A DNA stretch of 6,047 nucleotides from a virus (Duplodnaviria > Heunggongvirae > Uroviricota > Caudoviricetes), in the IMG/VR virus record IMGVR_UViG_2681813004_000006, positions 1 to 6,047 of that record; one strand, given 5' to 3'. The translations under genes and the position numbers were made by a program. A model generated the notes under the pieces. That model saw nothing but the letters and a program-made list of their open reading frames with translations, was not told the origin of the DNA and searched no databases. Numbering within the stretch: the first letter of the stretch is position 1; the number at the start of each line of letters is the position of its first letter. This document shows positions 3,009 to 6,047 of the stretch, piece by piece.

Positions 3009-3084
3009 GGCCCTTTAGCTCAGTGGTGAGAGCGAGCGACTCATAATCGCCAGGTCGCTGGTTCAAATCCAGCAAGGGCCACCA
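3009..3084 (+). tRNA. tRNA with CAU anticodon, ileX/ileZ-like (tRNA-Ile2 by lysidine modification; would be called Met by anticodon alone)
   Basis: 76-nt cloverleaf: acceptor GGCCCTT/AAGGGCC, D-stem GCTC/GAGC, anticodon loop CTCATAA, T-arm GCTGG-TTCAAAT-CCAGC, encoded CCA. Near-identical to E. coli ileX as I recall it. Confidence 0.9.
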
Positions 3085-3085
3085 A

Positions 3086-3161
3086 CCGCCACTAGCCATC
3101 AGGAAAGAGCGTCAACCCTTTAAGTTGAGTGTGCGAGGTTCGAGTCCCCGGTGGCGGTCCA
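3086..3161 (+). tRNA. Atypical or degenerate tRNA-like gene (anticodon loop CCTTTAA, nominal anticodon UUU; identity uncertain, possibly a pseudo-tRNA)
   Basis: Perfect 7-bp acceptor stem CCGCCAC/GTGGCGG (C1-G72), T-loop TTCGAGT, encoded CCA, and a good anticodon stem TCAAC/GTTGA. However the D-stem is GCCA/GAGC with two mismatches, position 33 is C rather than the near-universal U, and the T-stem has an A-C mismatch. Confidence 0.5.
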
Positions 3162-3163
3162 GT

Positions 3164-3239
<76 letters not shown>

Positions 3240-3247
3240 TCAAGTCC

Positions 3248-3282
3248 GGTGGGGTTCCCGAGCGGCCAAAGGGAGCAGACTG
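3248..3282 (+). pseudogene. 5' fragment (about 35 nt) of a tRNA-Tyr gene, lacking the anticodon and 3' half
   Basis: GGTGGGGTTCCCGAGCGGCCAAAGGGAGCAGACTG matches the 5' end of E. coli tRNA-Tyr (tyrT/tyrU) as I recall it; similarity is lost immediately afterwards (ACTCAGTTCATGG...). Confidence 0.65.
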
Positions 3283-3539
3283 ACTCAGTTCATGGCCAAA
3301 AACGATTTCTGTGATAAATATTTTGAATATTATTTACAGGTAAATGGAGTGGGGCACATGGATAGAAATATTACAATAGAGAATGAAGTATATGCCCGTA
3401 TTGTATGGGCAGAGAAGGCAAAAACACGGTAATTCCGTGTGTTGCCATGATACCTGATTGGCAGAATAGTTGTTTGGTTTTGAGTATATAGTCAGCGTTT
3501 TTTGTTCAGTAATTGCTCCCTCAAAAAATAATAAAATAA

Positions 3540-3660
3540 GGTGATTATTTTTGTTTATTATTTAGTTTTTTTTGTGTGTTGTTTTATTGTTTTTGCGTGG
3601 TTTGTTTTTTATTGTTATTTCATTAAGGGAAGGTAAATTCAGGATGGCAGTCTGTAGATA
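3540..3660 (+). promoter_or_regulatory. T-rich, AT-rich upstream region of the PerC-like gene (probable promoter and curved-DNA region)
   Basis: Iterated TTTTTGT / TTGTTTT / TTATTGTT motifs across 3545-3620, directly upstream of the strong SD and ATG of the 3675 gene. Possible -35 TTGTTA (3613-3618) and -10 TAAATT (3634-3639). Confidence 0.35.
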
Positions 3661-3674
3661 ATCGGAGGTCACTT

Positions 3675-3989
3675 ATGCTACATGATCACGTGGCAGAATG
3701 TCTGGAGAAAAAAGGACTGTACCGGAGAGCAGCTGAACGATGGGCAAAAGTGATGGTACAGCTAAGTGATGACCAGAAAAGAAAAGTAGCGGCACAGAAA
3801 CGAGCAGAGTGTTTGCGTAAGGCGCGCCGGACTCCGGTTTCACCGGTGAACCTGACCGAAATAAAACAAGCGGTCAACAGACTACATTCTGAGTTGGGAA
3901 TGGGATTTGAAGAGCGGCGGGTATTCCGACGATATAAAGGGACAGGAGAACAGAATACGTCCGGAAACGCGCGGTCAAAAAAATGCTAA
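3675..3989 (+). CDS. PerC-family transcriptional regulator (Pch-like, PerC homolog)
   Basis: 104 aa. N-terminal motif LEKKGLYRRAAERWAKVM matches the conserved PerC/Pch signature (ekkGlyRRAAerW) as I recall it; basic C-terminus. Strong SD GGAGG 6 nt before the ATG. AT-rich context typical of prophage cargo genes. Confidence 0.7.
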   Translation: MLHDHVAECLEKKGLYRRAAERWAKVMVQLSDDQKRKVAAQKRAECLRKARRTPVSPVNLTEIKQAVNRLHSELGMGFEERRVFRRYKGTGEQNTSGNARSKKC

Positions 3990-4025
3990 AAAATATCTGA
4001 GAGAGTTATTGCCTGTTACCATAAG

Positions 4026-4052
4026 AAAAAGCGACTTTAGTGGTCGCTTTTT
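4026..4052. terminator. Bidirectional intrinsic terminator between convergent genes
   Basis: AAAAA-GCGAC-TTTAGTG-GTCGC-TTTTT: a 5-bp GC-rich stem flanked by an A-run upstream and a T-run downstream, so it can terminate on both strands. Confidence 0.6.
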
Positions 4053-4070
4053 GTGTCATATATAAGTCGT

Positions 4071-4295
4071 TTAAGTAAACCTGTCTGAACAGGTGCTCTG
4101 GTCGTGTTTGTCTTTGTTGGGTACAAATTGAGAATATTTTTCATTAATTAATCTTCTTCTGCAGGCTTCAATAACCCACGCTGAAAAATTACCTGAACCT
4201 TTCAGGTCAAGAGCGATGTTAATTTGTTCAATTATCTGGTTTGGAAATCGGATGTTGCGGGTTGTTGTTCTGCGGGTTCTGTTCTTTGATGACAT
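4071..4295 (-). CDS. Small YlcI/YnfO-like (DUF3950-like) prophage protein, 74 aa
   Basis: Internal ATG (M35 of the 108-aa track ORF) gives MSSKNRTRRTTTRNIRFPNQIIEQINIALDLKGSGNFSAWVIEACRRRL..., resembling DLP12 YlcI as I recall it. A perfect TATAAT on the - strand (plus coordinates 4338-4343) lies about 40 bp upstream. The longer 108-aa form (start 4397) is possible but would begin upstream of that promoter. Confidence 0.5.
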   Translation of the reverse strand: MSSKNRTRRTTTRNIRFPNQIIEQINIALDLKGSGNFSAWVIEACRRRLINEKYSQFVPNKDKHDQSTCSDRFT

Positions 4296-4465
4296 AATGT
4301 TGCCCCGAGGGGTTACATATTGCCAAAAAACTGCTTTATTATATCCCGAATAACGCGGGGATCCTGCTGGTACCATGCTGTCGTGGTGGTTCGGCATTTA
4401 CCCAGGGCGCGGAGGGGACATTCAGTGCGGACACGGGGGCCAGCCAGGATTCGGCGCGCTGGGGT

Positions 4466-5716
4466 GTGGGTAAACCGTTATATCAGGACCTGATTGCGCG
4501 CACCAAAGCTGCATTACAGAAGAACCCGAAAAATGTGTTGCTGGCGGTGTGCTGGATGCAGGGAGAGTTTGACATGAGCGCCGCCACCCACGCACAGCAA
4601 CCTGCGCTGTTTACAGCCATGCTGACACAGTTTCGTGCTGACCTCTCCGTGTTTAACGCGCAGTGCCATGGTGGCAGTGCTGCAGATGTGCCGTGGATTT
4701 GTGGTGACACGACGTATTACTGGAAAAATACATACGCTACCCAGTACGACACCGTGTACGGCGGGTATAAAAACAGGGAGAGTGAGGGCGTTTATTTTGT
4801 GCCCTTCATGACAGACGGTAACGGCGTCAATACCGCCACTAACGCGCCGGCAGAAGATCCGGATATTCCGGCATCAGGATATTACGGTGCGGCATCGAGA
4901 ACGAATGGAAACCAGGTATCATCAAACCGCCCGACACATTTCAGTTCATGGGCGCGCAGGAGCATTATTCCGGATCGTCTGGCAACCGCTATTCTGAACG
5001 CAGCCGGGCGCACCTCAGCCTTCATCAGTGGTAAGGCACCGGAAATCAAACCCTCGCCCGGCGGCAACACGCCATCGGGTCCGTCTGCAGATACGTCCGT
5101 TCGCACAATCTCCCTGCTGCCGGCAGCCGGAGAGGCTGCTGCGCAGGGCTGGAGCATTAAGGATGGCGGAATTCAGTTGTCAGATGGTGTATTTAAGATC
5201 ACCAAGCAGAGCAATAAAACCTGGTCCCTGACGCATCCGGTGGATGACGCAATTACCCTGCTGACACAGGGCGGCAGACTGACCTGTAAGTTCCGCCTGT
5301 CAGGCGCACTGACCAACAATCAGTTCGGGCTGGGGATTTATCTGTATACGGATGCTCCCGTTCCTGATGGTGTGGCGATGACGGGTACCGGTAATCCGTT
5401 CCTGATGTCGTACTTCACTCAGACCACTGACGGCAGAGTGAATCTGATGCATCACAGGAAAGCCGGAAACACGAAGCTGGGGGAGTTCGGCGATTACGGT
5501 AACGACTGGCAGACGCTGGAGCTGGTGTTCACCGCCGGCAGTGCCACGGTTACTCCGAAACTGAATGGAGTGGCTGGCCCGGCATTCCAGGTTATAAAAG
5601 ACAGTCTGACACTGGGACTGAATGCGCTGACGCTGACGGATGTTACAAAAAATGCAGCGTATGGCGTTGAGATAGAAAGTCTGGTGCTGGAGATAAATGC
5701 ACCGGCATCATCATAA
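4466..5716 (+). CDS. NanS-p-like 9-O-acetyl-sialate esterase homolog, N-terminally truncated (SGNH/DUF303 C-terminal half plus C-terminal beta-rich domain); possibly a gene remnant
   Basis: Motifs IPNNAGILLVPCCRGGSAF (upstream, in frame but with no start), [19 protein letters not shown], and [16 protein letters not shown] resemble the central and C-terminal parts of YjhS/NanS as I recall them. The frame is open from 4298, with the first canonical start a GTG at 4466 and no good SD. The N-terminal GQSN catalytic-serine region is absent. Confidence 0.65.
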
Positions 5717-5800
5717 AAAGTGAGCCAGTCAAATGGAAGGTATCGTTAAACTCACCGGTAGTGTCAGTGGGTCGTCTGAGACGCCTGCATGAGTTATCAG

Positions 5801-5834
5801 AGCCATCAGTAGTTAACTGGTGGCTTTTTTATTG
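5801..5834 (+). terminator. Intrinsic terminator upstream of the holin gene
   Basis: 9-bp stem AGCCATCAG / CTGGTGGCT (one G-U wobble), loop TAGTTAA, followed by TTTTTTATT. Confidence 0.55.
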
Positions 5835-5865
5835 TTGTCAGCTTCCGGATAACGGGAGACGGGGT

Positions 5866-6047
5866 ATGTACCAGATGGAAAAAATCACAACAGGTGTGTC
5901 ATACACCACGTCAGCGGTAGGGACGGGATACTGGTTACTGCAACTGCTGGACAAAGTCTCTCCGTCCCAGTGGGTGGCAATAGGTGTACTGGGGAGTCTG
6001 CTGTTTGGCCTGCTGACGTATCTGACTAACCTGTATTTCAAAATCAG
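5866..6047 (+). CDS. Lambdoid class-I holin (S-like), 5' portion; continues beyond the window end
   Basis: Translation [60 protein letters not shown]... matches lambdoid-prophage S holins from memory. Dual-start motif (Met1 and Met4), SD GGGAG 7 nt upstream, hydrophobic TM segments. Not in the ORF track because no stop falls inside the window. Confidence 0.85.

Follow-up and report, generated by a model that had tools for sequence, protein, structure and literature searches.

A probable 5'-truncated remnant of the esterase gene nanS-p beside a displaced PerC-YlcI segment in the late region of a lambdoid prophage

In the lambdoid prophages of EHEC-type E. coli, an intact nanS-p gene encodes a three-domain sialate O-acetylesterase that consists of a DUF1737 domain, an SGNH/SASA domain and a jelly-roll domain. 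The window analyzed here, which comprises all 6,047 bp of the draft contig AOTC01000204.1 (assembly GCA_001447405.1), contains a long open frame (4298-5716, + strand) that resembles the rear part of such a gene. A sequence-only reading of this DNA had left two possibilities: the frame is either a recently truncated pseudogene or a C-terminal module that is expressed alone. The question is therefore whether the frame is the debris of a known gene, a gene in its own right, or an artifact of assembly. The answer that we consider probable is that it is a 5'-deleted, non-functional nanS-p remnant, which originated from a recent illegitimate recombination.

Gene calls, Pfam and ARAGORN identify the window as the late-regulatory region of a lambdoid prophage. 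It contains genes for a DUF968 protein (1-409), RusA (422-781), a Q-like antiterminator (DUF1133/Phage_antitermQ, 790-1320) and an N6/N4 DNA methylase, which ends at 2959. An array of tRNA genes on the + strand (3009-3239) encodes tRNA-Met/Ile2 (CAU), tRNA-Lys (UUU) and tRNA-Thr (UGU); ARAGORN predicts all three, while Rfam detects only the first and the third. Downstream of the open frame are a terminator-like hairpin (5799-5827, + strand), which in intact phages is natively located between nanS-p and the holin gene, and the 5' part of a class II holin gene (Pfam Phage_holin_2_1; 5866-6045, + strand), which is cut by the contig end. The region of this hairpin is collinear with the relatives L001 and the O121 RM8352 prophage up to position 6047. 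The frame is hence located in the late region between the Q gene with the tRNAs and the holin gene S, as expected for nanS-p, which may also have stx on its upstream side.

The frame is closed upstream by a TAA at 4295-4297 and ends with the stop codon at 5714-5716; it comprises 472 sense codons. A frame check confirmed the earlier description, according to which the frame is open from 4298 and yields 416 amino acids from a GTG at 4466 (4466-5716, + strand). No ATG, GTG or TTG occurs in frame between 4298 and this GTG, which is the first in-frame start. The absence of a convincing Shine-Dalgarno (SD) sequence, also claimed earlier, agrees with the weak pairing of -4.0 kcal/mol between the region upstream of GTG 4466 and the anti-SD sequence.

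An alignment to full-length NanS-p and to NanS, which had been proposed for mapping the truncation, places the breakpoint at codon 149-152 of nanS-p and matches NanS from residue 95. Positions 4308-5728 of the window are 99.3% identical to nanS-p from the O26:H11 11368 prophage, beginning with nt 446 of this 616-codon CDS. Positions 4308-6047 are 99.7% identical to the O121 RM8352 prophage, whose nanS-p allele comprises 620 codons; this alignment is free of gaps over 1,740 nt. With the intact genes for 616-620 aa in O26, O121 and O157 prophages the identity is 99.3-99.7%, and the homology starts abruptly at codon 149-152. According to the frame, position 4298 corresponds to codon 146 of the O26 allele or to codon 149 of the O121 allele. 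Past position 4339 only 1 of 1,377 nt (4340-5716) differs from the O121 RM8352 allele. The comparison with this allele gives one synonymous and two non-synonymous changes, which are too few for an informative dN/dS; the synonymous change and one of the non-synonymous changes fall in a cluster at the junction. Because of the 99.9% identity to intact alleles, an intact frame of 1.4 kb is expected by default and is uninformative on selection. Judged from these alignments, the intactness of the frame would only reflect how recent the truncation is.

The domain content of the frame was examined with Pfam and with a sequence search against the PDB. In the frame from 4298, Pfam detects only profile positions 70-157 out of 226 of SASA (PF03629) plus a complete DUF6645 domain (PF20350; E 3e-18); when the ORF is read from GTG 4466, the SASA match covers profile positions 101-158. 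An intact relative has DUF1737 at residues 3-53, SASA profile positions 4-157 and DUF6645. The remnant frame is devoid of DUF1737 and does not contain a complete SASA domain. In the PDB search, frame residues 4-234 align with chain positions 106-332 of 3PT5 (native residues 95-321; E 1.6e-77), and frame residues 276-468 align with chain positions 13-218 of 6YP6, the crystallized C-terminal domain of a NanS-p (E 5.6e-30). The same search with the intact protein matches residues 60-379 to NanS/YjhS (3PT5) and residues 421-613 to 6YP6. Both retained domains therefore have solved homologues with strong E-values: a partial SGNH/SASA esterase domain (4307-4999, + strand) and a C-terminal lectin-like jelly-roll of the DUF6645 type (5123-5701, + strand). 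This bears out the earlier claim that central SGNH/DUF303 motifs are followed by a C-terminal domain. Missing from the remnant are DUF1737 and ~90 residues at the start of the SGNH domain.

The position of the breakpoint decides on the catalytic residues. The 472-aa frame contains no GQSN motif (block I), while intact relatives have it at residue ~71-80. The serine of this motif is residue 73 in the intact protein and aligns with Ser19 of NanS; the histidine of the RPTH motif is residue 359 and aligns with His301. In NanS, Ser19 and His301 form the catalytic dyad. Since Ser73 is located upstream of the breakpoint codon 149, the nucleophile is lost. The histidine is kept; its codon is at 4937-4939 (+ strand) in the block-IV sequence RPTH-FSS, and HFSS is found at residue 158 of the 416-aa ORF. 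The N-terminal GQSN region is missing, as was stated in the sequence-only reading. The same reading had regarded a full catalytic set within 4466-5716 as evidence against a truncation; we searched for such a set and it is not there. Because the nucleophile is lost, no esterase activity on Neu5,9Ac2 is predicted, and the remnant should be incapable of esterase function. Its loss of DUF1737 would also make it incapable of docking to a capsid; according to a 2026 preprint, gp84 hexamers attach to the phi24B capsid through DUF1737.

These alignments also bear on a further explanation, namely that the frame encodes a complete protein of a different family with its own N-terminus. There is next to no chance that this is correct. 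The nucleotide identity of 99.3-99.7% is to the interior of nanS-p and starts in the middle of a domain, the frame matches NanS from residue 95 on, and all close homologues of at least 560 aa have DUF1737 and GQSN upstream. The interior identity, the alignments of the intact protein and of the frame, and the N-termini of the homologues together refute this explanation. The earlier note had named membership in another family as the result that would speak against its reading; what was found instead is the interior of nanS-p.

In place of the 5' part of nanS-p, the window contains a segment of 1,012 bp (3284-4295), which in relatives has a location after Rz and which comprises an AT-rich spacer followed by the PerC and YlcI genes. 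The segment is 98.9% identical to positions 6596-7607 of the O26 11368 prophage record, where it lies between the lysis protein gene and HNH/terminase. The gene order in relatives (O26, O157 and others) is tRNAs, nanS-p, holin, lysozyme, Rz, PerC, YlcI (on the - strand), HNH and terminase. The left boundary of the segment is 75 nt past the Rz stop codon, and this is the same in two relatives (O26 11368 and O121 RM8352). On the right, the segment ends at 4295 with the ATG of YlcI as its final triplet. The homology stops at this ATG, and the native YlcI SD sequence of the relatives, GAGGAAAG, is gone.

Within the segment, the AT-rich stretch has a GC content of 0.32-0.35 at 3301-3750. The PerC-family regulator gene (3675-3989, + strand) encodes 104 aa; the Pfam match to PerC has an E-value of 3.8e-44, and the annotation of RefSeq relatives reads PerC family transcriptional regulator. 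The YlcI/YnfO gene (4071-4295, - strand; Pfam DUF3950) encodes 74 aa. Between these two convergent genes sits a perfect 10-bp hairpin (4026-4052) with A-run and T-run flanks, which is formed by the inverted repeat AAAAAGCGAC/GTCGCTTTTT and which looks like a bidirectional terminator. The earlier statement that the GQSN region is replaced by the YlcI gene and an AT-rich island is correct, but the orientation given for YlcI is not: the gene is convergent only with PerC, while it is divergent from the remnant with the 5' ends abutting. A YlcI ORF of 108 aa that reaches 4397 had also been read from the sequence. This ORF (4071-4397, - strand) is a chance extension of the real gene by 34 in-frame codons on its upstream side; the additional codons are antisense to the remnant and the ATG at 4397 has no SD sequence. 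The exact 74-aa sequence occurs on at least 996 contigs, while the extended 108-aa protein has no match in a collection of 15 billion proteins. At the left edge of the segment is an ORF of 46 aa with an ATG start (3292-3432, + strand), with a hairpin behind it; the RefSeq relatives that were inspected have no annotation for this ORF.

As a result of this arrangement PerC now immediately follows the tRNA array and takes the slot in which Stx phages have their stx genes. We looked for a relative in which a tRNA array is natively followed by the PerC module and found none. PerC-family (Pch) proteins are activators of LEE in EHEC. Because the gene has moved away from its slot after the lysis genes, and because the family is known for LEE activators, the timing of PerC expression might change.

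The two ends of the segment provide information on how it came to its present position. On the left side, positions 3163-3282 match the chromosomal tRNA-Thr|tRNA-Tyr (thrU-tyrU) locus in E. coli genomes at 100% identity; they comprise tRNA-Thr, a spacer of 8 nt and 35 nt from the 5' end of tRNA-Tyr. The tRNA-Tyr identity ends at 3282; this 5' piece (3248-3282, + strand) is broken in the anticodon loop and marks the left breakpoint of the rearrangement. On the right side is a filler of 12 nt (4296-4307), which is a poor match to either parent; 5 of the 10 bases at 4298-4307 differ from nanS-p. Two clusters of substitutions, at 4301-4307 and 4336-4339, convert VGQ into CPE and the Pro of LLPYIP into Tyr. 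This Pro is present in ~95 out of 105 homologues. The changes are unique to the present contig, and none of the 105 homologues shares the change of either cluster. A distant-mode search of E. coli genomes with positions 4283-4345 found no other source for the filler and the patches; the only match was nanS-p from 4308 on.

At either junction the sequence shared with both parents is at most ~2 nt, and the 1,012-bp segment is flanked neither by terminal inverted repeats nor by target-site duplications. Three genes are damaged: tRNA-Tyr by the cut in the anticodon loop, YlcI in its translation signal, and nanS-p. Because the junctions have no shared sequence, terminal repeats and target duplications are missing and three genes are damaged, we interpret these scars as the footprint of illegitimate recombination. 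The pattern is one of a recent illegitimate recombination and not of a designed architecture. In the proposed mechanism a non-homologous recombination would have brought the PerC-YlcI segment to its place behind the tRNA array and in front of nanS-p. The same event, which would have been recent, would have deleted the 3' half of tRNA-Tyr, the promoter-proximal region and the ribosome-binding site of nanS-p, and nanS-p codons 1 to ~148. The abrupt start of the homology, the loss of the catalytic Ser and of DUF1737, and the high identity of the rest to intact alleles favor the first of the two possibilities in the sequence-only reading, that of a recently truncated nanS-p pseudogene.

The only feature that turned up in the search for flanking repeats is an 8-mer, GCCAAAAA, which is present at 3295-3302 and again at 4322-4329. 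The two copies are 1,027 nt apart and lie 9-11 nt inside both of the segments that adjoin the junctions. The pair may be due to chance, or it may be a trace of joining guided by microhomology.

The rearrangement appears to be restricted to the present contig. The right junction was found neither in 5,426 complete E. coli genomes nor in INPHARED (50,697 phage records), the GTDB species representatives, IMG/VR or JGI metagenomes; a search for the left junction in the same E. coli genomes and in the GTDB species representatives was equally negative. The exact 416-aa protein was found solely on this contig. Because it is a singleton on one draft contig, the rearrangement is not independently confirmed as physical. 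This raises the alternative explanation that the contig is a chimera, assembled from many near-identical lambdoid prophages, and that the strain in reality has an intact nanS-p gene and a PerC-YlcI module in the normal place. A chimeric assembly is possible because all three pieces that are joined here (the chromosomal thrU-tyrU piece, the PerC module and nanS-p) occur repeatedly in EHEC-type genomes, either as multi-copy or as core sequences. It would fit with a window that is a complete draft contig and that ends in repeated phage genes, and with a protein and two junctions that are unique to it. The clusters of mismatches, the filler at the junction and a deletion in the D-loop of tRNA-Lys could then represent a consensus of low quality. 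Three observations nevertheless make the chimera an unlikely explanation. De Bruijn or overlap chimeras need shared repeats, while the present junctions have next to no sequence in common with both parents. The 1,012-bp segment is non-native on both flanks, which is not what a simple collapse of repeats generates. Finally, the sequence is clean beyond the junction, with 0 indels over the 1,740 nt that align with O121 RM8352. A genuine recombination therefore remains the preferred origin of the nanS-p remnant.

We then considered whether the remnant could still be expressed. nanS-p is a late gene that is induced together with the prophage (PMC10462455; PMC8065619). With the Q/tRNA region on one side of the remnant and the holin gene on the other, Q-modified RNA polymerase would have to cross it; on induction, its passive transcription as part of the Q-antiterminated late transcript probably continues. 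Two findings argue against an independent transcription without Q: the hairpin at 4026-4052 is perfect, and no promoter-like site is located between this hairpin and the remnant ORF. The remnant has no dedicated translation start, but internal ATGs at 4556 and 4574 have an SD-like complementarity of about -8.5 kcal/mol. A product that is initiated there or at GTG 4466 would contain a broken SGNH domain together with a C-terminal lectin-like domain that should be able to fold alone.

This consideration brings up the second possibility of the earlier reading: GTG 4466 or one of the ATGs at 4556 and 4574 is translated on the late transcript, and the product serves as a free lectin-like glycan-binding protein. 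The intact frame, the SD-like pairing at the internal ATGs and a location that the late transcript has to traverse before it reaches the holin gene are all compatible with such a stand-alone module. So is the behavior of the homologous C-terminal domain. Its jelly-roll fold has been described (PMC10462455; PMC8065619); it was crystallized alone, has a stable fold, is naturally released by autoproteolysis (PMC10462455; PMC8065619; 2026 preprint) and is proposed to be a carbohydrate-binding module. In vb_24B_21 the proposed binding site includes the aromatic residues Y510, Y515, Y540 and F611 (PMC10462455). Mapping on the 6YP6 alignment shows F, Y, F and L at the equivalent positions of the present allele, meaning that three of the four are still aromatic.

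Other data speak against a stand-alone module, and we regard it as quite improbable. The internal start signals are identical to those in intact alleles, so that the truncation has added none. The product would bear 150-230 residues of a broken SGNH domain, and the arrangement is conserved nowhere. An open frame that is 99.9% identical to intact alleles says nothing on selection, and the unique substitutions near the junction hit a motif that is well conserved across homologues. The database proteins that have only DUF6645 are partials from contig ends or pieces of broken genes. Of the two examples that were inspected, one is a fragment of a broken gene and the other a truncated copy that starts ~800 nt from a contig end; hence DUF6645-only proteins were rejected as a natural family. 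It is even a little less probable that during induction a lectin-like protein without catalytic activity exists in free form and binds, off the virion, glycans that are sialylated or O-acetylated, as this possibility would predict. If true, it would be the first natural example of a NanS-p carbohydrate-binding module that acts alone. Most likely the frame is an ordinary relic that no longer functions and that corresponds to the last three quarters of a well-known prophage gene.

A comparison with known systems is consistent with a remnant of nanS-p. The closest relatives are the NanS-p esterases, including 933Wp42/z1466 of EDL933, vb_24B_21/gp84 of phi24B and the 616-620-aa alleles of O26, O121 and O157, with 99.3-99.7% nucleotide identity over 1.4-1.7 kb. 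The remnant has the same slot as these genes, directly upstream of the terminator hairpin and the holin gene, and the same DUF6645 domain; it shares the RPTH variant of block IV with NanS-p of the Stx2 phage 86 (PMC10462455). In contrast to these genes it is devoid of codons 1 to ~148 with DUF1737 and GQSN, it has no start of its own and it has unique substitutions that adjoin the breakpoint. Chromosomal NanS (YjhS, 3PT5) aligns with the remnant over residues 95-321 including His301; residues 1-94 of NanS, which include Ser19, have no counterpart in the remnant, and NanS has no C-terminal jelly-roll. The C-terminal domain of vb_24B_21 (6YP6) is homologous over the whole crystallized domain, but the remnant belongs to a different C-terminal sequence group and the similarity is only moderate.

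Decay of nanS-p is common. IS insertions occur within nanS-p of Stx2a phages (PMC10462455), and in CP026825 a nanS-p copy is covered by three gene calls and apparently frameshifted. In these cases the same gene is inactivated in a prophage; the present case differs in that the 5' end was swapped for the PerC-YlcI segment and not affected by an IS insertion or a frameshift. There is nothing new in the gene itself, since nanS-p is already known, and one more decayed copy of a well-studied, multi-copy prophage gene is of small importance alone. The locus is a clean example of how the late region of lambdoid prophages is reshuffled by non-homologous joining, with a PerC/YlcI cassette in the stx slot of Stx phages and a thrU-tyrU piece inside a phage tRNA array. 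It also calls for caution in annotation: gene callers report a 416-aa "DUF6645/SASA" protein, which, judged by its sequence, should not be able to act as an esterase.

Some minor observations concern the genes upstream of the segment. The DNA methylase starts with GTG 2030 in the ORF list (309 aa) and at 1946 in an external gene call (337 aa). In relatives the protein has 349-354 aa or is annotated as frameshifted; the 5' end of the methylase gene may also be damaged. The tRNA-Lys(UUU) gene (3086-3161) has a deletion of 1 nt in the D-loop at 3097, where it reads TAGC-CA, compared with TAGCTCA in three relatives. It scores below the Rfam gathering threshold for tRNA and represents either a defective tRNA or a sequencing error.

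The stretch at 3163-3282 has its counterpart, the thrU-tyrU locus, in every complete E. coli genome. The closest array is that of the SLK172 prophage, in which the identical tRNA-Thr is followed by tRNA-Gly; this array has the order Ile2-Lys-Thr-Gly and is followed by the holin gene. The chromosomal operon has the order thrU-tyrU-glyT. From a comparison of these sequences, the data suggest that the chromosomal thrU-tyrU-glyT operon was the source from which the phage acquired its tRNA array.
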